In this document: one piece after another, positions 5,029 to 60,108 of the stretch
How the letters are laid out: every line of letters starts with the position of its first letter
How positions within the stretch are numbered: the first letter of the stretch is position 1
The notes under the pieces: generated by a model
Databases searched by the model: none
Told to the model about the DNA's origin: nothing
Seen by the model: only the letters and a program-made list of their open reading frames with translations
Made by a program: the position numbers and the translations under genes
Assembly: GCA_031426395.1 (NCBI GenBank)
Contig: JANPLG010000182.1
Coordinates: 6,984-70,983, forward strand
Direction of reading: 5' to 3'
Origin: Actinomycetes bacterium
GTDB lineage: Bacteria > Armatimonadota > SYMT01
Length of the DNA: 64,000 bases

Positions 5029-5146
5029 CGGGTTTCCGGTTCCTTGTTTCAGGTTCCCGGTTCCCGGTTTCAGGTTTCCTGTTCCCTGTTTCCTGTTCCC
5101 GGTTTCAGGTTCCCTGTTCCCTGTTCCCGGTTTCCTGTTTCCCGTT
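5029..5146. repeat. Tandem heptamer array (KGTTYCM), about 16 units
   Basis: Direct read: ggtttcc ggttcct tgtttca ggttccc ggttccc ggtttca ... It lies about 180 bp upstream of nuoA on the minus strand. Confidence 0.8.
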
Positions 5147-5390: not shown

Positions 5391-5815
5391 CCGGGTAACG
5401 CGCTGGATTGGCGTGTTGCGCCCCAGGACGATGCCCTGGGCTACCTCATTGCGCCCCTTCAGGGCTGGGGAGGTTACCGTCCGCGTTCCCAGGGCGATGC
5501 CCTGGGCTGGGGTATTGCGCCCCGTTGGGGCTGGTGGTGTGGGACGCTGGGTGAAGCCGTAGAGCGTGGGGGCACTGGAGTGACGGGGTTGCCTGGTTCC
5601 GAAGTGGTATACGGCTGTCCAGTGGGGTGTTGCGGGACGGTTCGCGGCCGCCGGAATCCAACTGATGCGCTGGATTGGCGTGTTGCGACCCAGGGCGGTG
5701 CTCTGGGCTACCTTATTGCGCCCCTTCAGGGCTGGGGAGGTTGCCGTCCGCGTTCCCAGGGCGGTGCCCTGGGCTGGCGTATTGCGCCCCGTTGGGGCTG
5801 GTTGCCAGGGTCGGG
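5391..5815. repeat. REP-like repeat cluster: two copies of a ~145-bp unit, each with two GC-rich hairpins (CCCAGGGCGRTGCCCTGGG)
   Basis: Hairpins at 5422-5440, 5488-5506, 5697-5715 and 5756-5774. The nested sub-repeat ATTGCGCCCC(N)GGGGCTGG recurs. The cluster sits in a ~1.5-kb noncoding gap (4854-6408) that also holds G-tracts at 5263-5270 and 5908-5921. Confidence 0.7.
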
Positions 5816-8713: not shown

Positions 8714-9643
8714 ATGCCCGAGCTACCCGATATCGAGCTGTACCTTCACGCGCTTGAGTCCCGGGTGGTCGGGCAGGCGCTGCGGGAGGTGCGGCCAGGC
8801 AACCCGTTCCTGCTGCGGACGGTCGACCCGCCCCTGCGCGAGGTCGCGGACCGCGTGGTAGTCGCAGTTAGCCGGATTGGGAAGCGGATCGTTATTGAGC
8901 TACAGGGGGAGCTACAAGGCGAGGTCTTCCTGGTCATCCACTTGATGATCGCGGGGCGTTTTCAGTGGAAAGTGGTCGGCGCCAAGCTCGGCAAGCCGCT
9001 CTGCACCTTTGTCTTTGACACAGGTACGCTCGTGCTCACGGAAGCGGGCTCCAAGCGGCGGGCCTCCCTGCATCTGGTGCGTGGACGCGCCGCGCTGGCG
9101 GCCTTCGACCGTGGCGGGCTGGAGGTACTGGACGCATCGCCCGAAGAGTTCGCTGCGGCACTTCGGCGCGAGAACCACACGCTGAAGCGGACGCTCACCG
9201 ATCCGCGGCTCTTCTCCGGCATCGGCAACGCCTACTCGGATGAGATCCTGCACCGCGCCCGGCTCTCGCCCTTCCTTCAGACGAAGCACCTGGACGAAGT
9301 GCGGACGGCGTGCCTCTACGCCGCCACGCGGGGCGTGCTGCGCGAATGGACCGAGCGCCTTCGCGGGGAGGTCGGCGACGGCTGGCCGGTTAAGGTGACC
9401 GCCTTCCGCCCGGAGATGGCGGTCCATGGCCGCTACGCCCAGCCCTGCCCCGTGTGCGGTAGCCCCGTGCAGCGGATTGTCTACGCGGAGAACGAGTGCA
9501 ACTACTGCGCCACCTGTCAGACCGGTGGCCGCGTCCTCGCCGACCGCGCCCTCTCCCGGCTGCTGGGAGAGGACTGGCCGCGTAACCTGGAGGAGCTGGA
9601 GGAACGGGGTATCCTGCCCCGGAAGGCGGCGGAGCGCGGTTGA
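8714..9643 (+). CDS. Fpg/Nei-family DNA glycosylase/AP lyase (formamidopyrimidine-DNA glycosylase or endonuclease VIII)
   Basis: N-terminal MPELPDIE with catalytic Pro2/Glu3, H2TH region and a C-terminal CxxC...CxxC zinc finger (CPVCGSP...CNYCATCQ). Confidence 0.8.
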   Translation: MPELPDIELYLHALESRVVGQALREVRPGNPFLLRTVDPPLREVADRVVVAVSRIGKRIVIELQGELQGEVFLVIHLMIAGRFQWKVVGAKLGKPLCTFVFDTGTLVLTEAGSKRRASLHLVRGRAALAAFDRGGLEVLDASPEEFAAALRRENHTLKRTLTDPRLFSGIGNAYSDEILHRARLSPFLQTKHLDEVRTACLYAATRGVLREWTERLRGEVGDGWPVKVTAFRPEMAVHGRYAQPCPVCGSPVQRIVYAENECNYCATCQTGGRVLADRALSRLLGEDWPRNLEELEERGILPRKAAERG

Positions 9644-9720
9644 CCGGACTGGTCAGGCTGCGATGGAGAGCTTGAGAGATAGAGGGATGGAGAGACCCTG
9701 ACGTTGCCGTTCCCCACACC

Positions 9721-9769
9721 GCATTCCGCATTCCGCATTCCGCATTCCGCATTCCGCATTCCGCATTCG
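9721..9769. repeat. Tandem heptamer array (GCATTCC) x7 between convergent genes
   Basis: Seven perfect GCATTCC units, 78 nt after the fpg stop and 10 nt before the hemQ stop. A degenerate copy sits at 60969-61010. Confidence 0.85.
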
Positions 9770-17272: not shown

Positions 17273-17283
17273 CCGCCGGGGTC

Positions 17284-17324
17284 CAATTTGCAATTCTCAA
17301 TTGACAATTGCAAATTGACAATTC
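17284..17324. promoter_or_regulatory. AT-rich element with CAATTG/TTGCAA palindromes and two TTGACA hexamers in the yeaH-spoVR spacer
   Basis: Direct read: caatttgcaattctcaattgacaattgcaaattgacaatt. It shares the 12-mer AATTGCAAATTG with the element upstream of asnS (26221-26266). Confidence 0.4.
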
Positions 17325-20283: not shown

Positions 20284-20420
20284 TGCCGGGGAGACGCTCC
20301 CCTCTGACAGCTAGACGGACCACGGCAGCGCAAGGTTCCAAGGCGCAGAACCCGTCGCAGAGTCGGCGCTGGTGCGTCCCGTGACGCAGCGGCACCCGCA
20401 ATTCGCAATCCGTAATCGCC

Positions 20421-23068: not shown

Positions 23069-25006
23069 CTAGTTGAATTGGACTCTTCGGTTCCGAAAAC
23101 CTGGCCCAGCGTTAAGCCCGCTGAGCCCGAATCGCAGTTCCCCCAACCCCGCTCAGCCGCCCAGTGGGAGGACGCGGGCCTGCAGGCTTGACAGCCCTCC
23201 TCGCCCGTACATCGTTCGTTTGATGGCCTTGAGGCGGTTCACGGTGCCCTCCAGCACGCCGTTGCTCCAGGGCTCCACCAATCCCGTGAGCACCGCGCTC
23301 CAGTCCTGCCGGAGGCCGGTGCAGAAGGACTTCAGCGGGCCGATCCCGCTGGCCCTCACGCGCTCGATCCACTGCTCGAGCGCGCGGGCCAGCGCCTCAC
23401 GCCCCAGCGGCTCCTCGCCGGTGTTCCCCCGCTCCCGGGCCAGCAAGCGAAGGAATTCGAGAGCCAGTTCCGTTGCCCGCCGCGCCTTGGGCGCCTGAAG
23501 GAAGAACTCCGCGGCGAAGATCGCCGCCCGGGCCGCGCGCCCGGACTTCGGGGACGGCTTGCCCAGGCCGGCGTGGAGGAGGCTCCACATCGCGTCCTTC
23601 AGCCGCCGGGCCTTGGCCGGCGGCGGCTTGGCCGGGTGGCGGGGCGGGCGGACCCCTCCCGCCGCCACAAGCGCGCGCCAGCGCCGGCGGACCCACTTCT
23701 CCACTGCGGAAGGGCCGTCCGGATAGCCCAGGGCCTGGAGCTCCCGCCACAGCTCCCCCGGTCCCCGGCACCCTTCCTCCCACCGGCGCTCGAGGCGCGG
23801 CAGATGGGGCGTCAGGGCCGTCGGCGCCGCGCGGTAGTCCTTCCTCTCGCGGAACGCGTCGCTGGCCATGAGGCGCGTGGCCGTCACGTGGTGGATGCCC
23901 AGCGCCTGGGCGATATGCTCCGCATCGGAGCCGCAAGCTTGCAGGCGCTTGACGGCTTGATACAGATCCAGGCGACGCTGGCGGCTGGCCCTGCTCCGCT
24001 CCCGCTCCGGCCCCGAAGAGCCATAACCGGGGAACCCATCATCCTGCTCCTGCTCCTGCTCCTGCCCCGGGGCCGGTGCCGAGCTCACCGCTCCGCCCGG
24101 GAGCGCCGACGCTGCGGGGGCCGCCGTTGATCCTGCTTCCTCCTGCCGAGCCAACCGCTCCGCCCGGGTGGCGGCCTCGATGGCGGCGGCCCACTGGCCC
24201 TCCTCCTGCCGGAGGTGGTCCAGCAGGGCCTGGGTCACTCCCTGCGCCAGATGGAACGGATCCGATCCCTGCGCGGACTGCGGCGCGCCCTCCCGGATCG
24301 CGGCGGCGTAGGTCTTGCTCCCGTCGCGGCTGACATGCTTGATCTCCGGGTGCCCGCGAAGCCAGGCGGCCAGCGTGGCCTGCTCACGATCCGGCAGGAG
24401 GCCGATCGGCTCATGGGTGTCGAGATCCACCAGCAGCGTGCCGTGGCGCCTCCCTTTGGCGAACGCGAAGTCATCCACCCCGAGGTGCGTCACCTTCCGC
24501 GCCGCCGCGCCGCGGTGGGAGAGGCTCCGCTGGAGTTCGCGGAGGACGGTGTCCGGGCTCACGCCAAAGCCCAGCTCGGCGGAAACAACCGCCCCGCGCT
24601 CTCCGCCCAGGCTGTGGCCGAGCAGCCGGAGCCATTTCACCACGTCGCACGCCCGGCGGCCATGGGGGGCGAGGAAACCGGGCAGCCGCTCGGTGAAGAT
24701 CCGCTGCGGGCACGTGGGGACATGGCAGAACCACTTGCGCGACTCGATGTCGGCGCGGAGGGGACAGCCGGCCCACGGGCGCAGCACGGCCACGCGGCGG
24801 TACCGGCTGTGGACCTTGGTGGAAAGCTGGTGGCAGCGCGGGCAGGCGGCTGCGGCGCGGCGGGTGGCGACGTCCAGGCGCAGGGCGCCATCGATCACGA
24901 AGGCTCGCAAGACGCGGACAAGCTCGGGCGCCGGATGCAGGGCAGGGGGTTGCATGCCTCCCCTTTCCCGCCTTGACACTTCTTGACACTGAGTCTCACC
25001 AACTTG
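23069..25006 (-). mobile_element. ISL3-family insertion sequence (about 1.94 kb), approximate ends
   Basis: Contains the ISL3 transposase ORF. Imperfect terminal inverted repeats at 23069-23090 (CTAGTTGAATTGGACTCTTCGG) and 24985-25006 (reverse complement CAAGTTGGTGAGACTCAGTGTC). It interrupts a beta-propeller gene. Confidence 0.55.
23153..24979 (-). CDS. ISL3-family transposase (608 aa, with a low-complexity Ala/Pro/QEQEQEQ insertion)
   Basis: N-terminal zinc-ribbon CPRCH, DDE region (HLGVDDFAFAKGRRHGTLLVDLDTHEPIGLLPDRE) and C-terminal ISL3 signature WSNGVLEGTVNRLKAIKRTMYGR. Confidence 0.85.
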   Translation of the reverse strand: MSRRERGGMQPPALHPAPELVRVLRAFVIDGALRLDVATRRAAAACPRCHQLSTKVHSRYRRVAVLRPWAGCPLRADIESRKWFCHVPTCPQRIFTERLPGFLAPHGRRACDVVKWLRLLGHSLGGERGAVVSAELGFGVSPDTVLRELQRSLSHRGAAARKVTHLGVDDFAFAKGRRHGTLLVDLDTHEPIGLLPDREQATLAAWLRGHPEIKHVSRDGSKTYAAAIREGAPQSAQGSDPFHLAQGVTQALLDHLRQEEGQWAAAIEAATRAERLARQEEAGSTAAPAASALPGGAVSSAPAPGQEQEQEQDDGFPGYGSSGPERERSRASRQRRLDLYQAVKRLQACGSDAEHIAQALGIHHVTATRLMASDAFRERKDYRAAPTALTPHLPRLERRWEEGCRGPGELWRELQALGYPDGPSAVEKWVRRRWRALVAAGGVRPPRHPAKPPPAKARRLKDAMWSLLHAGLGKPSPKSGRAARAAIFAAEFFLQAPKARRATELALEFLRLLARERGNTGEEPLGREALARALEQWIERVRASGIGPLKSFCTGLRQDWSAVLTGLVEPWSNGVLEGTVNRLKAIKRTMYGRGGLSSLQARVLPLGG

Positions 25007-26225: not shown

Positions 26226-26266
26226 GTTTGCAAACTGAAAATTGCAAACTGAAAATTGCAAATTGG
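26226..26266. promoter_or_regulatory. AT-rich tandem repeat (TTGCAAACTGAAAA x2 + TTGCAAATTGG) with the 10-bp palindrome GTTTGCAAAC, upstream of asnS
   Basis: Direct read. It shares AATTGCAAATTG with the spoVR upstream element. It lies 117 nt upstream of the asnS start in a GC-rich genome. Confidence 0.4.
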
Positions 26267-26382: not shown

Positions 26383-27774
<1,392 letters not shown>

Positions 27775-27869
27775 CGCACTCGCTCCCTGATGGTCGGACA
27801 TCTGACCCCTCCGCACCCGCACTGCACGGGTCCCTCTATCCCGCCCTCTCTCCCTCTCTCCATCTCAAA

Positions 27870-28808
27870 TCAACGGGGACGGCTGGCGAGCTGGATGGGT
27901 GACCGCTTCAACAAGAGGTACTGCGGCACCATCAGGAGCGCCACCAGCAGCGCCGGGACGATCCCTGAATAGCCCCCTGCCAGCGTAGCGGAGAGCAGGG
28001 TGAACCCGAGGAACCCGTACTGGACTGCTTCGAGAGCGGCAGGTCGGCGAGGGTCGACTGCGGCGTTCACGAAGCGCGGGTAGGCGAGGATCACGAGCCC
28101 GATGAGAAACGGGAGGGCCTCCCACGGCCGGTTGAAGCCGCTCCTCGCCGCGAAGATCAGGGCCGAGGCCGCCGCCGCCAGGTGGACGAGCGCCACAAAG
28201 CTGGTGGTCGGGGGCGCACCCGGCTGGCGGCTGACGCGCACCATCGCCCATCCCGCCGCATAGAGCCCTACTGCCGCCACCGCCGGAACGTAGCGCGGGA
28301 GCAGGTCCGGTGCCACCGAGAGACCGACCGCCAGGTTGAGAGCGTGTGCCGCTCCCAGGGTCAGGAACCCCACCCCCCACACTCGCCGGGTGACCGCCGC
28401 GTAAAGGATGACTGCCATCGCGGTCATGAGTGCGAATGCAAGGGCCTGCAGCCCACCGGTGGCGGTGAGGAGCAGCCCGATCGGCAGGAGCACCCACGCT
28501 GCTTTCCACGCCACGCCAGGCTCCACTCGGCCGGAGGGGAGCGGTCGGTCCGGATGCTCCGCCAGATCCGCGTCCCGATCAAAGTAGTGGCCGAAGCAGG
28601 CCCCGGCCCCGAAGAGGCAGGCGCTCCCCATTGCGGTCACGAACGGCGGAAGCGACAGGACGAACGAAACCGAGAGTCCGCCCGCGAGGCACTCTGCTGC
28701 GGCAACCAGCGCCAGCGGGGCATTGAGGAGCGTCAGGAAGTCGTCCTGGAGGCGGGGACCCGGTGGCGGCTTGCCGGACGGCCTGGTGCTGGCGGGGAGC
28801 AACGGCAT
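27870..28808 (-). CDS. UbiA-family aromatic/heme prenyltransferase (integral membrane); start set at MPLLPAS
   Basis: DRDADLAEHPDRPLPSGRV matches the UbiA-superfamily Asp-rich motif, with multiple TM helices. The upstream 129 codons of the ORF look spurious. Confidence 0.7.
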   Translation of the reverse strand: MPLLPASTRPSGKPPPGPRLQDDFLTLLNAPLALVAAAECLAGGLSVSFVLSLPPFVTAMGSACLFGAGACFGHYFDRDADLAEHPDRPLPSGRVEPGVAWKAAWVLLPIGLLLTATGGLQALAFALMTAMAVILYAAVTRRVWGVGFLTLGAAHALNLAVGLSVAPDLLPRYVPAVAAVGLYAAGWAMVRVSRQPGAPPTTSFVALVHLAAAASALIFAARSGFNRPWEALPFLIGLVILAYPRFVNAAVDPRRPAALEAVQYGFLGFTLLSATLAGGYSGIVPALLVALLMVPQYLLLKRSPIQLASRPR

Positions 28809-29051
28809 AGGTGAGAGCGGAGTGAGGGCGGTGCGACGGACCTGCGTTCCTACCCATGATACGCGCCGGGAACGCCCGGTGAAGGCTGCTGGGAGGCGCT
28901 CATCCCCAGGACGGGAAGGATCACCGATGACTGATGAAAGTGGGGAAGGAAAGCGCCCCAGCGAACGTGGAACAGGCCCCAACGTGGCAGCCGGGCCGAG
29001 GTTCCTTCTCTTGGCTCCTTCCCTTGAGGCCCGCACCGCGCGGAGCGAATC

Positions 29052-29417
29052 ATGCAGCGGCAGAGCAACGATCCCGGTAGTGTGGAGATGGCGCTGGTGG
29101 ATGGCGCGCCCCAAATCCGTCTCCGGGGCGAGTGCGACCTTGCCACGGCCCCGGCGCTCCAGCAACAGGTAGCGGGCCTGGTTCGCGAAGGGCACACTCG
29201 GCTGGTGTTCGACCTCCAGCAGGTCACCTTCATGGACAGCAGCATCCTGCGGTCGTTCCTCACCGCGCGCCGCGACCTCCAGCCCACCGGCGGCGAGGTG
29301 GTGCTGCTCTGCCGGCCGGGCTTCGTGCGGCGGCTGCTGTCGCTGCTGGAACTGGACCAGTTGGTGCGCGTCTGCACCCCGGAGGAATGGCGGAAGTCGG
29401 TCGCAGCAGTGAACTGA
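29052..29417 (+). CDS. STAS-domain protein (anti-sigma-factor antagonist, SpoIIAA-like); start 29052 or 29088
   Basis: …LVFDLQQVTFMDSSILRSFL… is the typical STAS core with the phosphorylatable Ser region. Confidence 0.7.
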   Translation: MQRQSNDPGSVEMALVDGAPQIRLRGECDLATAPALQQQVAGLVREGHTRLVFDLQQVTFMDSSILRSFLTARRDLQPTGGEVVLLCRPGFVRRLLSLLELDQLVRVCTPEEWRKSVAAVN

Positions 29418-29421
29418 CGAT

Positions 29422-29720
29422 CCATTGCGGATTTCGGATTTCGGATTTCGGATTTCGGATTTCGGATGCGGGTTGGCTGGAGGCAGGGCGTTGCTTCATC
29501 TTCGTCTTCTCCGCTCGACGGGCCGGTCGCTGGAAAACCCCGTGGACCGTCACTCTGGGCGTCCCCACCCTGCCGGCGCGCGGACTCACTGCCCTCCCAG
29601 AGTCCACCCGGATCCGTGCTCAGCGTCGAAACAGTCCCTCTGCTGCTCGGTGGCCACGGGCGACCGTGACCGGATTGGGACGCGGATTGGGACGCGGATT
29701 GGGACGCGGATTGGCTCGAG
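29422..29720. repeat. MITE-like element, subfamily A copy (5' TIR CCATTGCGG(ATTTCGG)4-5 GATGCGGGTTGGCTGG; degenerate 3' end with a (CGGATTGGGACG)x3 array at 29672-29716)
   Basis: The 5' 55 bp are near-identical to the 5' end of the 59857-60098 element. The internal region is homologous but diverged (…GGACTCACTGCCCTCCCAGAGTCCACCCGGATCCG…). Confidence 0.5.
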
Positions 29721-29940
29721 ACCCGGTGACGCTGTCGGCAATCGCTAGGTGGGTGCGGGCGGGACGCCCGCGCTCCCAGTCTCTCCATCCCTCTATCTCT
29801 CCTTCTCTCCATCGCATAATGATCGGTCCTTGGTCCGGCGGCCCCCGTGCGGGTTTGACGCGGACGCCTATCAGGTATGAGTGGCTGGCAACCGTGCGCT
29901 CCTAGAGGGACAGCTTCCACCGCCGGCACGCCGCCAGAAC

Positions 29941-30025
29941 AGACATGATGATTGCGCAGATGGATGCGCAGATGATTGCGCAGATGGATACGCAGATGGA
30001 TGCGCGGATGGATGCGGATCGACTG
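29941..30025. repeat. 12-bp tandem repeat (GCGCAGATGGAT-like) x~7, in frame with and upstream of the flippase start
   Basis: Direct read: gatgattgcgcagatggatgcgcagatgattgcgcagatggatacgcagatggatgcgcggatggatgcg. It would translate as (AQMD/AQMI)n. Confidence 0.7.
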
Positions 30026-30118
30026 ACGTCGCCGGACGAGCCTCGAGAGACAGTAGGGACTGCGCCCGTTGCCGCGGCCGGCGCAACGCTCGCCAGTGAG
30101 GTGAGTGAAGGTCCGGGC

Positions 30119-31570
30119 ATGGCCCGGCGGGTGGCGGGCAACTCGATCTGGCTGATCGGGCAGCCCCTGCTGCTGAACGTGCTCTCCATCGCCAGCACCG
30201 CTTACATCTCGCGGAAGCTGGGAGCGGACGGCTACGGCATCTTTAACCTCGGCCTGGCCGAAGCGACCCTCTTCGCCCCGATCTGCAACCTGGGGCTCAG
30301 GGCAGTGATGGTCCGCAAGATCTCCAGCGATCGCGACCAGGCGGAACATGCCACCGCCGTCTTCGGGATGCTCCGTCTCCTGACCTGCTGCTTCGCGACC
30401 CTGCTCGCACTAGTCTGGCTGCTGCGCCCGGGCGTCGACCTCCCGGTGCGGCTGGTCGGCATGGCGGTGGTGGTGTGCGTCATCCTGACCGGCGCGGGGC
30501 AGGTGGCGGTCGACCTGGCCCAGGGTTACGAGCGTTCGCGGCTCGGGGCGCAGCCGCAGTTGGTCGGCGGGATCGTTCTGACGGTCTGCTCCGTGCTGGC
30601 GCTGGTGCTGGGGTGGGGACTGCCGGGGTTTGTCGCGGCCTACGTGCTGGGCGCCGCGCTCCAGTTCGTCTTACTGGTCAGGATGGTCCGCCGCAACTTC
30701 TTCCCACCACGGGTGCACTGGGACCTGCCGCAGATGCGCGCCTACGCGATGGAAGCGCGCCCCTTCGCGCTCAAGAGCGTCATCGGCACCAACACCCAGC
30801 CGGGCGTGCTGGACGTGGTCATCCTGGGAATGTTTGCCACCCAGGGTACGGTGGGAGCCTACGCCGCAGCGATTGGGCTCGTCTCCCGGCTCCTGATCAT
30901 CCCGCTGGGTGTGGGTGACGCGCTCTACCCGGCCATCGCAGGCAGCATTGGCAAGGACACCGCCGCGACGCAGCGCGAGGCTCGGCGGGTGCTGACGCTT
31001 CTGCTCCTGGTGACCCTCCCCGTTGCCGTGGGAATCGGCATGACCGCGCCGACCGTCTTGAACATCCTCTTCGGTCGGGAGTACGTCTCAGCCGCGCCCG
31101 CCATGCAGATCGCCGTGCTGCTGCTTCCGCTCAACGGCCTCTCCTACGCCCTCAACGAGTGCCTCAGCGCCGCGCATCGGCAGAACGACGTAGCAAAGCT
31201 GACCGTAGCGGGCGGTGCGCTGCTGCTGGTGCTGTTCGCCGTCTTCATTCCGATCATGGGAATCCTGGGCGCGGCGCTGGCGCTGGTGGCACGCGATGCG
31301 CTGATGCTTCCGTTCCGACTGCGGGTGTTCCGGGTGGTCCTTGGCCAGCCGCTCCGCCGAAGCGACCTCTTCAGGCTGGCCGTGGCATCCGGGCTTATGG
31401 CGATCCCGCTGGCCCTGGCACCTGGCATCTCCAATACTCCCGCTACCGTGGGAGTGGGACTCCTCAGCCTGGCCGTCTACGGCAGCGTGGCGATTCTACT
31501 GGGGCTGGTCCCCGGAGTGAGGCTCCCGCGATCTGGGGCCGGAACCGCCGCAGCTTCACCTGCTGGCTGA
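30119..31570 (+). CDS. Polysaccharide/oligosaccharide flippase (Wzx/MOP-superfamily, polysaccharide biosynthesis protein family); start set at MARRVAG
   Basis: About 12-14 TM helices, typical N-terminus (…NSIWLIGQPLLLNVLSIASTAYISRKLGADGYGIF…), GAAGG RBS at the chosen ATG. Confidence 0.75.
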   Translation: MARRVAGNSIWLIGQPLLLNVLSIASTAYISRKLGADGYGIFNLGLAEATLFAPICNLGLRAVMVRKISSDRDQAEHATAVFGMLRLLTCCFATLLALVWLLRPGVDLPVRLVGMAVVVCVILTGAGQVAVDLAQGYERSRLGAQPQLVGGIVLTVCSVLALVLGWGLPGFVAAYVLGAALQFVLLVRMVRRNFFPPRVHWDLPQMRAYAMEARPFALKSVIGTNTQPGVLDVVILGMFATQGTVGAYAAAIGLVSRLLIIPLGVGDALYPAIAGSIGKDTAATQREARRVLTLLLLVTLPVAVGIGMTAPTVLNILFGREYVSAAPAMQIAVLLLPLNGLSYALNECLSAAHRQNDVAKLTVAGGALLLVLFAVFIPIMGILGAALALVARDALMLPFRLRVFRVVLGQPLRRSDLFRLAVASGLMAIPLALAPGISNTPATVGVGLLSLAVYGSVAILLGLVPGVRLPRSGAGTAAASPAG

Positions 31571-31592
31571 CGCGTCACCATCTCGACACCCG

Positions 31593-32444
31593 CTATTCCG
31601 TGGAGGCGATGGCATACTCGCCCTCCCGCTGCTCGATGCGGAGGACGCTGCGCTCCGGTTCGTGGTCGAGCACCAGCAGCCAACCCTCGCGGGCGGCTCG
31701 GGCGAGGAACGCCTGCTTGGAGAGGAGCGCCTCGTAAGGGAGGAGGTCGTAGGCCATCCCCCAGAAGGGCCGGAGGTGATGGACCGTTGGCACCACGTCC
31801 GCCGGATAGGCGAGGGTCTGGCCCCCGCTCTCCAGGAAGACGGTCTGAAGGGCGCGGGTGTGGCCGGGCGTCACTTCCACGCGAATTCCTGGCAAGACCT
31901 CACCGTCGCCGTCAAGAAGCTGAAGGCGGCCGGACTGCTCTAGCGGTGCCAGATTCTCCGGCCGGTACGACACGCGCATGTGGCTCCGGTTGGCCACCGC
32001 GTCCTCCCACTCCAGCCGCTGCACGAGGTAACGGGCGCGGGGGAAGGAGGCAATGGGCACGGCGGTGCCCCCGTCCGCCTCCTGCGGAAGCCGACTGGCC
32101 CCACCGCAGTGGTCCATGTGAAGGTGCGTGAGGAGAACCATGGTCACGTCCTCCGGCCTCACGCCCAGGGCGTCCAGGTTCTCCAGCAGCGGCTCCCCAG
32201 GCTGCAGCGCGAGCTGGTCCCGCTCCTTGGCAGAGAACTTTCCGCCGTTCCCGGCATCCACTAGCACCACCTCGTCACCGGTGCGGATGAGCAAGCAATT
32301 AGTTTGGAGCGTCACCCGGCCGCGCTCATCCGGCGGAGAGTAGCGCGACCACACTGGTCGTGGAAGCACTCCGAACATGCCGCCACCGTCGAGACGAAAA
32401 GTCCCACCGCTCACCACCGCCACGTCCATCTCACCGATGCGCAT
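31593..32444 (-). CDS. MBL-fold metallo-hydrolase
   Basis: HxHxDH motif (LTHLHMDHCGG) plus downstream His/Asp ligands. Confidence 0.75.
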   Translation of the reverse strand: MRIGEMDVAVVSGGTFRLDGGGMFGVLPRPVWSRYSPPDERGRVTLQTNCLLIRTGDEVVLVDAGNGGKFSAKERDQLALQPGEPLLENLDALGVRPEDVTMVLLTHLHMDHCGGASRLPQEADGGTAVPIASFPRARYLVQRLEWEDAVANRSHMRVSYRPENLAPLEQSGRLQLLDGDGEVLPGIRVEVTPGHTRALQTVFLESGGQTLAYPADVVPTVHHLRPFWGMAYDLLPYEALLSKQAFLARAAREGWLLVLDHEPERSVLRIEQREGEYAIASTE

Positions 32445-32783
32445 CGCTCAAAACCTCTCACACCGGCGACGGGTCACTCGCCCCCAGAACCATAGCCAGC
32501 GGCCTCGCGCCGCGTTCGATCACGGTAGCAGTCTCGGTAGCCGTGCCCCCGCTTGGGGTGCGTTCACTCCGAAGTGCGGGCACCGTCACCGGGAGTCACA
32601 GAACGCCAGGGGGTTTACGGTCCACCAAGCCCCCCACCGTGATCGAACGCGGCACGAGGCCGCTGGCTATGGTTGGGGGCGGGAGGTGGTCCCCAGTCGG
32701 AGCGGTCAACCAACTCTTGTCCCCAATCCAGAATCCATACACACGGGCAAGCATTGGCACGCAATCCGAAATCCGCAATCGAC
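32445..32783. repeat. MITE-like element, subfamily B copy with a long internal hairpin (CCATAGCCAGCGGCCTCGCGCCGCGTTCGATCAC ... GTGATCGAACGCGGCACGAGGCCGCTGGCTATGG) and a heptamer 3' TIR (…GCACGCAATCCGAAATCCGCAATCG)
   Basis: Arms about 34 bp with one mismatch, roughly 150 bp apart. The 3' end is homologous to the 3' TIR of the 59857-60098 element, and the core is homologous to 46653-46983. Confidence 0.6.
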
Positions 32784-46651: not shown

Positions 46652-46652
46652 G

Positions 46653-46983
46653 CGGGATTTCGAATTTCGAGTTTCGGATTTCGAGTTGGGGACGGTGAGG
46701 CATCCGTTTTGTCGGGCGGATTCAATTCGCCATAGTCAGCAGCCTTGTGCTGCGTTCGATCACGGCGGCCGGCGTGTGACCCCACCGCACCCTCGCCCGC
46801 CATCCGCGATCCGCCTTCGCGCGACAGGTCAGGTGCAGAGACCAGCCGACTACCGTCATCGAACGCGGCACAAGGCCGCTGGCTATGGGCTGTGGCCGAT
46901 GACTGGCCGTATGACCTGATGAGCCTGCCTGGCAACACGGAGTCCGTCACCGTCCCCAACCCGAAACTCGAAATCCGCAATTG
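46653..46983. repeat. MITE-like element, subfamily B, full-length with about 35-bp heptamer-built terminal inverted repeats
   Basis: 5' GCGGGATTTCGAATTTCGAGTTTCGGATTTCGAGTTGGGGACGG. 3' reverse complement CAATTGCGGATTTCGAGTTTCGGGTTGGGGACGG. Internal long hairpin CCATAGTCAGCAGCCTTGTGCTGCGTTCGATCAC…CATCGAACGCGGCACAAGGCCGCTGGCTATGG. It sits exactly between the convergent stops of 46013-46651 and pyrD. Confidence 0.65.
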
Positions 46984-46988
46984 AGTGG

Positions 46989-56912: not shown

Positions 56913-57212
56913 CTATTCGCTAAGCAACTCCACCCACGTCTCCGACTGGTGCAACCGGAGCGCCAGGGCTTCAAGGTCCGGCAGGGTGCGTCGCTCAAGG
57001 TCAGCCCTCACCGTGGCGTTCACCAGACCCAACCGCGGCTCTCCCATTAGCAGGATGAGCCGCCGCACCTCTTCGACGCGGCCCAGCGAGAGGCCCTCGG
57101 AGAGACCTACGGAAAGGCCTTTTGTGAGACCCTTCTCGAAGCCCACCGCTTCACCTTCCTCAAGGATGGCCTGGTAAGTGGTCGATTCCTTCATCTTACG
57201 AACCCTCTGCAA
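56913..57212 (-). pseudogene. Stand-alone duplicated copy of the 3' ~300 bp (DUF4351-like C-terminal domain) of the adjacent Rpn-family gene, with a 16-aa Gly/Leu/Ser repeat insertion
   Basis: MKESTTYQAILEEGE…RVEEVRRLILLMGEPRLG…LALRLHQSETWVELLSE matches MKESTTYRAILEEGE…RVEEVRRLILLMGEPRFG…LALRLHQSETWGELLSA of the upstream gene. Confidence 0.5.
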
Positions 57213-57242
57213 GAGGTTCCTGGCGAACTCCTTGCGGAAAGC

Positions 57243-58121
57243 CTAAGCGGAGAGGAGTTCGCCCCATGTCTCCGACTGATGCAGCCGGAGCGCCAGGAGT
57301 TCGAGTTCCTCCAGGGCGCGTCGCTCCAATTCGGCCCGAACCGTGGTGCCCGCCGGTCCGAACCGCGGCTCGCCCATAAGCAGGATCAGCCTTCGCACCT
57401 CTTCGACTCTGCCCTTCTCCAGGCCCCTGACTTCACCCTCCTCAAGGATGGCTCGGTAAGTAGTCGATTCCTTCATTGCGCGGACTCCCTTTAGCAGATT
57501 CCTGGCGAACCCTCTGGGGTAACGCAGCCCTAGAAGAATATACGTGGAAACCCAGAACTCGGCCGCATCGGAGGGCGTGAGTTGGTCGTTGACGCGCACT
57601 TCCATCGCGCGTACCACGGCGGGCAGCGCGCCGGAATGAACGGCGGCAAGCGGGGCTAGGGGAAGGGTGCCGATGCCGCCCTTGAGCAAGTCGTCCACGG
57701 CGGTTTGCCATAACCTGCGCACCGAATAGCGCCAGACGATGCTGGTAGGCAGGACCGGCGGCTGTCGGGTCCACTCGCCGGTCAGATGGGGACCATCGGC
57801 TTCCTTCCGGAGCAGGAGGACGACGCTGTGCACCGGAAGATCATGCCGCTCGTCCAGGAGGACGTTGTAGCGCAGCATCCTTCGCGGCAGGCCCTCGTCC
57901 CGGGAGGCCTGCAACTCCAGGTGGAGGAGCCAGGGCTGTGGCTCCTCCAGTCGTAGCACCTTGTCCGCCGCGCCTGAGACGGTCGCGATGTCCGCGTCCA
58001 CCATCCGGACCGGACCCGATGGCCGGACCCCAAGCTGGGCGAGCCAGTCCTCGGGGTGGGCTTCAATGAGGTGCTTGAGGGTCGCGTCGAAGAGCCTGGC
58101 CATGAGGATTGCTTCCTGCAC
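57243..58121 (-). CDS. Rpn-family recombination-promoting nuclease / putative transposase (PD-(D/E)xK, YhgA-like) with a C-terminal DUF4351-like domain
   Basis: 292 aa, family-typical N-terminus (…FDATLKHLIEAHPEDWL…) and conserved acidic residues of the nuclease core. Confidence 0.65.
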   Translation of the reverse strand: MQEAILMARLFDATLKHLIEAHPEDWLAQLGVRPSGPVRMVDADIATVSGAADKVLRLEEPQPWLLHLELQASRDEGLPRRMLRYNVLLDERHDLPVHSVVLLLRKEADGPHLTGEWTRQPPVLPTSIVWRYSVRRLWQTAVDDLLKGGIGTLPLAPLAAVHSGALPAVVRAMEVRVNDQLTPSDAAEFWVSTYILLGLRYPRGFARNLLKGVRAMKESTTYRAILEEGEVRGLEKGRVEEVRRLILLMGEPRFGPAGTTVRAELERRALEELELLALRLHQSETWGELLSA

Positions 58122-58289: not shown

Positions 58290-59855
58290 TTGCGGCCGTC
58301 GATGGATACAAGCGAGAGGGCAGGCTGTACCACGCAGGGGGTGACGGAAGTGGCGCTTGACGGATTGGAGACAACCTACCGGGAACTGGAGCTGGCCCTG
58401 CGTGCGCGGGTTCCGCTGATCGCCCTCGTCACGGTGGAGGAGCAGCGGGCCGAGGAGCGGCTTCTCCAGCCGCTCGCCCGGGACTGGCGCGAGGGGCGGC
58501 TCCTCGCCTGGTCCACCACCCGTGGCTTCCAGACGCTGCCTGCGGACCCGCTCGAGGAGCCACAGCGCTTCTCAGCGCCGGACCCGCCCTCCGCGCTGGA
58601 GTTCATCGCGCAGCACGAAGAGCCGGCGCTGTTCGTCCTCAAGGACTTCCACCACTACCTGGAGAGCGCGGTCGTCCTCCGACGCCTCCGCGAGCTCTTC
58701 ATGGAGCTGCCGCATACCGGCAAGCAGATCGTCTTCCTCGGTCCCCGCTTCCGCGTGCCGGAGGATCTTGAGAAGGAGGTCCAGATCATCGACCTCCCCC
58801 TCCCGGCGCTCCCGGAGCTGGCGGCGCTCCTCGACTCCCTGGCGGATGCCGTGAAAGGCGAAGTGGCCCTCACCCCGGCGGGCCGCGAGCGGTTTCTCAA
58901 AGCCTCACTCGGCTTCACGCTCTCAGAGGCGGAGACCGTGCTGGCCAAGGCGATTGTCCGCGACGGTGCCCTCACCGACGCCGGGGTGGACCTCATCCTG
59001 GCGGAGAAGCAGCAGATCGTGCGTCGCAGCGGCTTCCTGGAGTACTACACGGCTGAGGAGACGCTGGACGATGTGGGCGGTCTCGCGGGCCTGAAGCGCT
59101 GGCTCGCCACCCGTGAGGATGCCTTCACCGAAGACGCCCGCGCCTACGGGCTGCCGGTGCCGAAGGGCGTCCTTCTGCTGGGTGTCCAGGGCGGCGGAAA
59201 GAGCCTGGTGGCGAAGGCTATCAGCCGGGCGTGGCAGATGCCGCTCCTGCGCCTCGATCTCGGCCGCGTCTTCGGCAAGTACATCGGCGAGAGCGAGGCG
59301 GCGATCCGGCGCGCCATCCGTTCCGCGGAGAGCGTCTCCCCCTCCATCCTCTGGATCGATGAGATTGAGAAAGGCTTTGCCGGCGCCACCGTCGAGGCGC
59401 ACGACACCGGCGTGAGCGCCCGCGTCCTCGGGACCTTCCTCACCTGGATGCAGGAGAAGCGGAAGCCGGTCTTCGTGATCGCCACGGCCAACCAGATTCG
59501 GAACCTCCCGCCGGAACTGCTGCGCAAGGGCCGTTTCGACGAGCTCTTCTTTGTCGACGTGCCGGATGAGCGGGAGCGCGAGGAGATCTTCGCCGTCCAC
59601 CTGCGGAAGCGCGGCCGCGTGCCGGCCAGCTTCAACCTCCGGGCGCTGGCGGCCCGCACGGACGGCTTCACCGGCGCCGAGATCGAGCAGGTGGTGAACG
59701 AAGCGCTCCACGCCGCCTACGCGGATCACCGCCGGGAGATCACCCAGGCCGACCTCGAGCAGGCAGCCGGCGAAGTAATCCCCCTCGCCGTCACGATGAA
59801 GGAGTCGGTGGCCGCCATGCGCTCGTGGGCCGCCAACCGGGCAAGACGAGCCTGA
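58290..59855 (+). CDS. AAA+ ATPase (Ycf46-like family); alternative GTG start at 58341
   Basis: Walker A GVQGGGKSL(V)AKA, Walker B ILWIDEIEK, second region of homology, Arg finger. The N-terminal …LRARVPLIALVTVEEQRAEERL… is typical of Ycf46-like proteins. Confidence 0.75.
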   Translation: MRPSMDTSERAGCTTQGVTEVALDGLETTYRELELALRARVPLIALVTVEEQRAEERLLQPLARDWREGRLLAWSTTRGFQTLPADPLEEPQRFSAPDPPSALEFIAQHEEPALFVLKDFHHYLESAVVLRRLRELFMELPHTGKQIVFLGPRFRVPEDLEKEVQIIDLPLPALPELAALLDSLADAVKGEVALTPAGRERFLKASLGFTLSEAETVLAKAIVRDGALTDAGVDLILAEKQQIVRRSGFLEYYTAEETLDDVGGLAGLKRWLATREDAFTEDARAYGLPVPKGVLLLGVQGGGKSLVAKAISRAWQMPLLRLDLGRVFGKYIGESEAAIRRAIRSAESVSPSILWIDEIEKGFAGATVEAHDTGVSARVLGTFLTWMQEKRKPVFVIATANQIRNLPPELLRKGRFDELFFVDVPDEREREEIFAVHLRKRGRVPASFNLRALAARTDGFTGAEIEQVVNEALHAAYADHRREITQADLEQAAGEVIPLAVTMKESVAAMRSWAANRARRA

Positions 59856-59856
59856 T

Positions 59857-60098
59857 CAATTGCGGATTTCGGATTTCGAGTTTCGGATTTGGATGCGGGT
59901 TGGCTGGTTGTGGGAATCCGTATCGTCTCTTCCGGTGCGTGGACTCAACGCTCGATTCGAATCCACCCGGACCCGCACTGCGGGTGGCCAGTCCGAAGAG
60001 GGACTGCTCCGTCACGCAGTCTCGCGAAAGGCGGCTCATCTGGTGAGACGGTCGTTGTCGCACGCAACTCGAAATCCGAAATCCGAAATCCGAAATTG
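59857..60098. repeat. MITE-like element, subfamily A, full-length (242 bp) with ~30-bp heptamer TIRs, between convergent stop codons
   Basis: 5' CAATTGCGGATTTCGGATTTCGAGTTTCGGATTTGG. 3' reverse complement CAATTTCGGATTTCGGATTTCGGATTTCGAGTTGCG. It starts 2 nt after the AAA-ATPase stop and ends 10 nt before the Lon-N gene stop. Confidence 0.65.
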
Positions 60099-60108
60099 TC
60101 GGTGGCCG

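Follow-up and report, generated by a model that had tools for sequence, protein, structure and literature searches.

The DNA analysed here (the window) is a 64,000-nt stretch of contig JANPLG010000182.1 (GenBank assembly GCA_031426395.1; positions 6,984 to 70,983, forward strand) from a genome named Actinomycetes bacterium and placed by GTDB in the Armatimonadota. Our subject is the repeat-dense spacer at 29422-30118 of this window, which separates a gene for a STAS-domain protein from a gene for a polysaccharide flippase and carries one heptamer array and two 12-mer arrays. The features of the locus, with repeat statistics from Tandem Repeats Finder (TRF), are as follows.

29052..29417, + strand: STAS-domain gene of the anti-sigma-factor-antagonist type (Pfam PF01740, E=2e-18; also PF13466)
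29424..29467, + strand: heptamer array ATTGCGG(ATTTCGG)5, five exact ATTTCGG units after one ATTGCGG
29464..29480, + strand: junction motif GGATGCGGGTTGGCTGG, a 17-mer identical at 59891-59907 and found nowhere else in the window
29570..29637, + strand: diverged core block, aligning to 59928-59994 in the same orientation
29671..29714, + strand: first 12-mer array, (CGGATTGGGACG)x3 + CGGATTGG (TRF 3.7 copies, 100% match, score 88)
29752..29829, + strand: dispersed TC-rich box GTCTCTCCATCCCTCTATCTCTCC...TCTCTCCATCGCA, with further copies at 9646-9720 (inverted) and 27830-27876 (direct)
29855..29881, + strand: sigma-70-like promoter candidate TTGACG-N15-TATGAG from a relaxed scan (9/12, short spacer, no T at position 6)
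29903..29905, + strand: in-frame TAG (three-frame translation) at the upstream end of the open flippase frame, beyond which no N-terminal extension can reach
29942..30025, + strand: second 12-mer array, GCGCAGATG(GAT/ATT), with a 24-mer higher order (TRF and unit table)
30098..30111, + strand: Shine-Dalgarno-like motifs GAGGTGA (30098-30104) and GAAGG (30107-30111) from a motif scan
30119..31570, + strand: gene for a Wzx/PST-family polysaccharide flippase, with the start judged most probable; public annotation has the start at 29945 instead

The STAS gene has a G+C content of 0.75/0.44/0.86 at the three codon positions and a GGAG motif 6 nt upstream of its ATG. Its stop codon TGA lies at 29415-29417 and is followed by CGATCC and then by the heptamer array. 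The flippase matches PF01943 at 72.6 bits (cut-off 28.2) and PF13440 at 54.3 bits (cut-off 23). Its closest homologues share 44-54% identity, the named ones being flippases from Armatimonadota metagenome-assembled genomes (MAGs) and from one Longimicrobium. An identical 541-aa protein beginning at ATG 29945 is present in public annotation (P0001, NCBI). Exact-protein look-ups of both flippase versions returned no record, a GTDB scan with one genome per species found no flippase relatives, and a flippase 26-mer had no match in the JGI metagenomes.

Both 12-mer arrays described in an earlier reading of the DNA, made from the sequence only, are real, with small corrections. The first array, which had been placed at 29672-29716, occupies 29671-29714; it is perfect and probably represents a local, recent amplification. 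For the second array, the proposed count of about seven units at 29941-30025 was generous, as it consists of five good middle units (29954-30013) and two degenerate outer ones, with unit starts at 29942, 29954, 29966, 29978, 29990, 30002 and 30014. TRF resolves it as 29953-30016 with a period of 12, 5.3 copies and 86% match, or alternatively as 2.9 copies of a 24-mer, and its units vary between ATT and GAT, ACG and GCG, and CGG and CAG. Neither 12-mer recurs elsewhere in the 64 kb, apart from an isolated CGGATTGGGACG copy with one mismatch at 8873. At no more than one mismatch, four matches were observed for each 12-mer versus shuffle means of 0.36 and 0.89, the count for CGGATTGGGACG including the stray copy. 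A search of the JGI metagenomes with two units of the second array found no homologous array; its 10 matches were unrelated, eight being chance coding sequences for AQMDAQM and two non-coding.

The TC-rich box is supported by a 51-nt inverted match of 84%, by blastn matches of 76% and 79%, and by a 21-mer search with two matches versus none expected. At two of its three sites the GA-rich strand directly follows a gene stop (those of an Fpg-like gene and UbiA); in the spacer it is an orphan. The promoter candidate at 29855-29881 is weak and the sole one in the spacer, and if it is real, the second 12-mer array lies in a leader of about 230 nt. A stricter scan of the spacer for promoters and terminators found none. 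Alternative open reading frames (ORFs) on either strand of the spacer, including a 499-aa antisense ORF, matched no Pfam family and were rejected as spurious high-GC ORFs. At the gathering threshold, Rfam models matched only four Acido-Lenti-1 RNAs (5422-5799) in the whole window, a permissive search of 29300-30250 gave only sub-threshold chance matches, and a scan for tRNA and tmRNA genes found none, despite a string resembling TTCGAATCC in the copy of the first spacer block at 59.9 kb. The RNA of 29885-30150 folds no better than shuffled sequences (z +0.57).

Two starts come into question for the flippase, the ATG at 30119 and an ATG within the second 12-mer array. As had been noticed from the sequence, this array is rich in ATG codons and in frame with the flippase. 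From the TAG at 29903-29905 onwards the frame is open and passes without a stop through the array, with in-frame ATGs at 29945, 29948, 29960, 29972, 29984, 29996 and 30008 (seven in the array) and at 30119. Translation from 29945 would indeed give the proposed (AQMD/AQMI)n extension, reading MMIAQMDAQMIAQMDTQMDARMDADRL... The preference expressed for the ATG at 30119 over that at 29945 is supported by the initiation signals and by composition. The GAAGG at 30107-30111 lies 7 nt upstream of ATG 30119, and other starts of the window that are assigned with confidence have GAGG or GGAG motifs before them comparable to those at 30119. ATG 29945 has no Shine-Dalgarno motif upstream, and the later array ATGs have only GGA. 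Between the array and 30119 (30026-30118), the G+C content is flat over the codon positions (0.77/0.71/0.65, versus 0.71/0.48/0.85 in the flippase core) and the codon log-likelihood ratio is +0.04 per codon, versus +0.76 in the core. Third-position G+C turns coding-like (0.85-0.97) from about 30110 and reaches 0.97 from 30113. In addition, the residue encoded by ATG 30119, Met59 of the long ORF, is nearly invariant in 20 homologues; the PF01943 match begins at profile position 4, corresponding to residue 66 in the long ORF. The extension resembled those of homologues no better than composition-matched shuffles did (P=0.24 by maximum score and 0.055 by summed score). We therefore favour ATG 30119, with moderate confidence, as the start of the flippase gene.

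Several observations weigh against this choice and speak for translation of the second array. Sixteen of 19 close homologues are annotated with an extension of 17-34 aa upstream of the conserved Met, and so the earlier claim that 30119 fits homologue N-termini better stands for the Pfam profile, which begins there, and not for these annotated proteins. The homologue P0002 has CTG (Leu) at the position of the conserved Met, with an AGGAAG motif before its upstream ATG, and its extension must therefore be translated. The frame is open for 71 codons upstream of 30119, and the array is codon-like in the flippase frame only, at +0.68 per codon versus -1.0 and -0.85 in the other frames, a score resting on about four distinct codons, repeated. 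About half of the genes in the window have no obvious Shine-Dalgarno motif, so that starts of this kind appear common here. The public annotation P0001 begins at 29945, a 'GTAPV' string matches P0007, and the end of the array lies approximately where an ancestral start would lie. On this account the flippase would have lost its ancestral start after an operon break and would now start at one of the seven array ATGs (29945-30008), with an acidic, probably disordered cytoplasmic (AQMD/AQMI)n extension of 37-58 aa, variable in length in steps of 4 aa. Given the homologue extensions and the genes without Shine-Dalgarno motifs, initiation at an array ATG deserves consideration, but it appears doubtful in view of the flat composition downstream of the array and the better initiation signal at 30119. 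Moreover, a unit length divisible by three is no evidence of coding, since the first 12-mer array of this spacer clearly does not code. The 541-aa database model from 29945 is thus probably over-extended, by about 58 residues.

The gene context points to the origin of the spacer. At four distinct homologous loci (L003, L005 and L006 among them), the flippase gene directly follows a Wzy_C gene in an exopolysaccharide (EPS) cluster, the genes overlapping or lying 5-10 nt apart. Here, the neighbours of the flippase gene are housekeeping genes (AsnRS, UbiA, STAS, MBL, RecX and RNase J), and tblastn found no Wzy, glycosyltransferase, Bac_transf or deacetylase homologue in the spacer or in the 64-kb window. 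The flippase has probably been detached from its ancestral wzy partner, which would make the spacer a rearrangement junction; the comparison behind this history covers only four distant homologous loci (about 50% identity), which counts against it.

On balance, we slightly favour reading the spacer as non-coding DNA at a probable rearrangement junction that has since been filled with slippage-prone repeats typical of this genome, the second 12-mer array lying upstream of the real flippase start. The Wzx-type flippase would have been separated from an ancestral wzy-wzx operon, leaving the spacer at the junction, and the arrays may then have grown by slipped-strand amplification in this unconstrained DNA. 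From 5' to 3', the result would be the STAS-side heptamer array with the junction motif and the core of a palindromic element of which one arm is present, the recent perfect 12-mers, the TC-rich box, and the older imperfect 12/24-mers. The older array, 94-177 nt upstream of ATG 30119, would belong to the 5' leader or upstream region of the flippase gene. It may be stop-free and in frame partly by chance, and automated annotation would therefore extend the ORF to ATG 29945.

The heptamer array at the STAS side begins 6 nt past the STAS TGA, with a period of 7, 6.3 copies, 97% match and a TRF score of 81. Arrays of the same kind occur at the following other positions of the window, each 3-12 nt past a same-strand stop.

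9719-9768: (AATGCGG)7, a related unit
20396-20416: heptamer array
32759-32779: heptamer array
46657-46684: heptamer array
46961-46981: heptamer array
59859-59893: heptamer array
60062-60096: heptamer array

All seven (ATTKCGR)n arrays of at least three units in the window, that of the STAS gene included, start 3-12 nt after a stop codon on the same strand, and 20 shuffles of the sequence contained no such array. With the related (AATGCGG)7 array at 9719-9768, eight of eight window arrays stand in sense after a stop. The genes preceding them include RecX, M28 peptidase, DHODH, AAA ATPase and a Lon-domain protein, and the arrays have 6.3 units after the STAS gene and 3-6 units elsewhere. Convergent pairs occur at 46657/46981 and 59859/60096, where each arm follows the stop of one gene. 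The array at 29424-29467 adjoins the STAS stop in sense and therefore probably belongs to the 3' end of the STAS gene as a member of the stop-proximal heptamer class.

The unit is widespread in other genomes. In a search of one genome per GTDB species, exact (ATTTCGG)3 was found in more than 120 stretches versus about 0.3 expected by chance. The 80 stretches listed by name are all from MAGs and cover at least 12 phyla; among the matches listed are Acidobacteriota, Verrucomicrobiota, Planctomycetota, Chloroflexota, Bacteroidota, Proteobacteria, Myxococcota, Gemmatimonadota, Patescibacteria and others. The copy number of 133 arrays from other genomes has a sharp mode at 4-5, and a period of 7 dominates the tandem repeats in these loci (310 rows versus 62 for the next period). 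When only arrays 330 nt or more away from the end of a locus are counted, an inverted partner follows within 400 nt downstream in 34 cases, and 75 arrays lack a partner on both sides. For these 75 solo arrays, the stop of a long ORF lying -3 to 15 nt upstream is found 19 times in sense versus 3 times in antisense, the background being 3.4%. Other heptamer arrays in the same loci adjoin stops in 40 of 137 cases.

Heptamers with this placement have been described before. Cyanobacterial short tandemly repeated repetitive (STRR) heptamers are intergenic heptameric repeats that also lie near stop codons. Rehm et al. 2015 reported GGGAATC in Xanthomonas and GGGGAYT in Nostoc, with about four units preferred, as sense-strand arrays within 50 bp of a stop, abutting or overlapping it, and with frequent convergent pairs (PMC4692102). 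They found no link to mobile elements, judged phase variation unlikely and proposed a three-tetrad G-quadruplex for the heptamers (PMC4692102). In the literature searched, no bacterial report of tandem ATTTCGG was found. The ATTTCGG array is a non-quadruplex member of this stop-proximal class, which is published but unexplained and which the cross-phylum behaviour of the ATTTCGG unit extends.

Downstream of the heptamers, the first spacer block continues as a dispersed sequence. This block is a diverged copy, with one end only, of the 59856-60098 element, and the two have in common the terminal motif T(C/A)ATTGCGG, the heptamers, the 17-nt junction and the diverged core. The core block of about 68 nt (29570-29637) has a local alignment score of 22, versus 9.5 +/- 1.4 and a maximum of 14 in 300 shuffles, is also recovered as blastn high-scoring segment pairs, and lies about 70 nt farther from the junction in the spacer than in the complete copy. 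Only the left end is present, no second arm (CCGAAAT)n having been found in the spacer. The RNA of the 5' spacer (29410-29730) is folded no better than shuffles (z +1.65). An assembly chimera at the heptamer array was considered and rejected, the exact identity with the 59.9-kb copy extending over only about 20 nt plus 17 nt.

These features had been taken for a truncated miniature inverted-repeat transposable element (MITE) with the heptamers as a terminal inverted repeat (TIR). The array does follow closely on the STAS stop, with the core farther downstream, and the block is a one-ended copy of a dispersed element as had been recognised, whereas the MITE label and the TIR reading of the heptamers did not hold: the block has no second TIR and the complete copies no target-site duplication. 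As a rival account, the first 220 nt would be a truncated copy of a genuinely mobile MITE with heptamer TIRs, its right half deleted after insertion. In its favour are two complete copies (46652-46984 and 59856-60098), palindromes of 240-330 bp with inverted heptamer arms at both ends that fill gaps between convergent genes. The terminal motif TCAATTGCGG is found at three ends; the spacer and 59856-60098 agree at every position of the 17-nt junction and are significantly similar in the core; and folding of the complete element (59850-60105) gives a long hairpin (z -3.4) that the heptamer arms close. Furthermore, the Acidobacteria MAG SZAS-13 carries elements of about 110 nt with identical arms and a conserved core. 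However, no target-site duplication flanks either complete copy (CCTGAT|...|TCGGTG; TAAGCGGG|...|GTGGTCAG), and the core of 46652-46984 is unrelated to that of 59856-60098, a conserved core being present, within the 64 kb, only in the spacer and in 59856-60098. Each arm adjoins the stop codon of a gene on the arm's own strand, both co-directional spacers (STAS-flippase and RecX-MBL) have an array only at their stop-side end, and the arrays in other phyla are mostly solo with a 19:3 sense bias, a bias not expected of symmetric TIR remnants. The window has no transposase with ends of this kind; it contains a single transposase gene, of the ISL3 family, at 23153-24979 on the minus strand (PF01610, E=3e-28), and no heptamer array was found adjoining it. 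The apparent TIRs behave as sense-strand heptamer arrays at stop codons, one per convergent gene, and we consider a mobile MITE unlikely.

Related palindromic arrangements were seen within and beyond the window. The SZAS-13 elements, of which that MAG has many copies, have arms of (ATTTCGG)4 and (CCGAAAT)3-4 (for example L058 5125-5238 and 7482-7587, and L070 2678-2816). The two L058 copies have the conserved core ATTGGTCCGGGTTCGGACGCTTCGATTT and exactly span the distance from a stop codon to the Shine-Dalgarno motif and ATG of the next gene, and the L070 copy has a different core. In the Armatimonadota MAG GCA_046292385.1, two gaps of the EPS operon with the flippase homologue (L003 2332-2456 and 3680-3770) are flanked by inverted arrays of TAGGGTC/CCCTAAA and GTTTGCAG/CAAACCTG; with other units in use there, hairpins that have tandem-repeat arms do not depend on one particular unit sequence. 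A second palindromic element of the window (32477-32685) has 94-nt arms with 73% complementarity, and copies related to it (83-92%) are nested in the 46652-46984 element at 46730-46888.

A wider proposal, which we put forward only tentatively, holds that stop-adjacent heptamers of 4-5 units, A/T-rich and then G-rich (ATTTCGG, ATTGCGG, ATTGGGG and AATCGGG), would form a very widespread, gene-oriented class of cis-elements in MAGs of at least 12 phyla, the array past the STAS stop being one instance. Their action on RNA or transcription at the 3' ends of genes (termination, processing and protein binding are examples) would need no G-quadruplex, and both GGAT-containing 12-mer arrays of the spacer would be variants derived from them and recruited into the leader of the orphan flippase.

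A more specific role for the repeats as RNA, in which the GGA/GGAU motifs of the three arrays together offer binding sites to a regulator of the flippase, CsrA-like or another RNA-binding protein, as in the multi-site pgaA leader or in CsrB-type sponge RNAs, seems improbable. The motif counts are skewed towards the plus strand of the spacer (GGA 29 versus 17, GGAT 17 versus 3 and CGGAT 13 versus 1), shuffles contain 12.5 +/- 3 GGA, (C)GGAT occurs in all three arrays, and GGA is present in 15 of 40 stop-adjacent sense heptamer units of other genomes versus TCC in 5. Yet the enrichment is confined to the arrays themselves and was not accepted as a sign of CsrA sites: in the rest of the spacer, GGA (10 in 525 nt) does not exceed the average of the window. 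Moreover, no hairpins presenting GGA in loops are predicted, and common descent, rather than a common function, may link the three arrays.

Least probable of all is a phase-variable locus, in which gain or loss of 12-mers by slipped-strand mispairing switches or strongly tunes the flippase and produces heterogeneous surface polysaccharide, as had been suggested from the repeat copy number. Tandem arrays do lie directly upstream of, or within, the 5' end of a polysaccharide-export gene; the perfect first 12-mer array points to active, recent slippage, which makes length variation in the population plausible and is a point against our reading; intergenic repeats are known to tune expression in Haemophilus (PMC12721329); and heptamer array lengths vary among Xanthomonas species (PMC4692102). 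However, the unit of 12 nt is divisible by three and a change in copy number therefore cannot shift the frame, so that any effect on expression would be graded and not on/off. The second array matches at only 86%, which lowers the slippage rate, and the first, though perfect, has only 3.7 units; neither is a homogeneous tract of short units (usually 1-9 nt). The -35 and -10 hexamers of a promoter leave no room between them for an 84-bp array, neither 12-mer array is overlapped by a sigma-70-like site (the weak candidate at 29855-29881 lies upstream of the second one), and the leader shows no unusual structure over 29885-30150. TRF lists 82 rows for the 64 kb, so that repeat arrays characterise the genome as a whole and not the flippase gene; the organism is an environmental Armatimonadota-like MAG and not a host-adapted pathogen; and Rehm et al. 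judged switching unlikely for the heptamer class (PMC4692102). An on/off phase-variation switch at the flippase is thus unsupported.

Some further observations concern the sampled population and other repeats of the window. Look-ups of STAS and MBL recovered only short contigs from Logan (SRR20217183), which carry the same organism and break off at repeats or fail to reach the spacer. Neither the GTDB representatives nor the JGI metagenomes yielded a second strain. Contig L001 corresponds to window positions 27542-29453, ending inside the heptamer array, with four substitutions clustered at about 28419-28440 in the UbiA gene that suggest strain micro-heterogeneity; contig L002 equals 31510-32517 and ends inside the 32.5-kb palindrome. 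A (GGTTYCC)16 array (5031-5144) lies beside two 147-nt direct repeats in 5400-5813 that hold the four Acido-Lenti-1 RNA matches (RF01687, 37-43 bits; 5422, 5488, 5689 and 5755). Palindrome-containing heptamer arrays of CAATTGA and TTGCAAA lie between co-directional genes (17282-17324 and 26228-26265); they are self-complementary and could form hairpins alone. The stretch 56933-57522 has direct repeats, 164 nt (79%) and 111 nt (76%) long, with a spacing of about 300 nt.

The locus itself is mostly ordinary, and the behaviour of the heptamers at stop codons across phyla is the only part of wider interest. For the flippase, the practical consequences are a public 541-aa model that probably needs shortening and no basis for a phase-variable label. 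For the heptamers, ATTTCGG cannot form a three-tetrad G-quadruplex, and their positional signature is therefore probably independent of quadruplex formation, which leaves fewer explanations for a class of repeats that has drawn notice since 2007 but never been accounted for.

Compared with known systems, the spacer resembles simple sequence repeat (SSR) contingency loci, such as the Haemophilus influenzae repeat in a 5' untranslated region or promoter (PMC12721329), in having a tandem repeat upstream of or in the 5' end of a surface-structure gene, but differs in its 12-nt, imperfect unit, the lack of frameshift and promoter overlap, and the environmental organism. In Borg elements, in-frame tandem repeats create disordered protein segments (PMC9879509). 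The second 12-mer array is similar in that its unit length is divisible by three and that, if translated, it would encode an acidic, low-complexity N-terminal segment; unlike the Borg repeats, its translation is disfavoured by composition, and the first 12-mer array is non-coding. With repetitive extragenic palindromes and bacterial interspersed mosaic elements (REP/BIME) and with MITEs, the complete window copies share their size of 240-330 bp, their palindromic structure, their location between convergent genes and their long hairpins, whereas their arms are tandem heptamers, they lack target-site duplications and have unrelated cores, the spacer copy is one-armed, and no REP-associated tyrosine transposase (RAYT) or other transposase is linked to them.

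Two heptamer systems are closer. The TAACTGA repeats of Beggiatoaceae, Cyanobacteria and Bacteroidetes, for which a post-transcriptional regulator (S1, Csp or CsrA) has been proposed (MacGregor 2015, PMC4679880), are likewise intergenic, gene-oriented direct repeats of a heptamer, in 2-6 copies, with a patchy cross-phylum distribution and no evident transfer mechanism. They lie a few nucleotides before start codons, whereas the window arrays lie just past stops, and the ATTTCGG unit contains no stop codon in any frame, unlike TAACTGA. The heptamers of Rehm et al. (PMC4692102) are the nearest relatives: arrays of about four units (3-6 in the window, with a mode of 4-5 elsewhere), on the sense strand at or over the stop, frequently in convergent inverted pairs, intergenic and not tied to surface genes, and with units that are A/T-rich and then G-rich, as are ATTTCGG, ATTGCGG, ATTGGGG and AATCGGG. 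Unlike those heptamers, ATTTCGG has only GG, which makes a three-tetrad G-quadruplex impossible; the STAS-side array is joined to a longer dispersed sequence of junction and core; and the identical ATTTCGG unit recurs in MAGs of at least 12 phyla.

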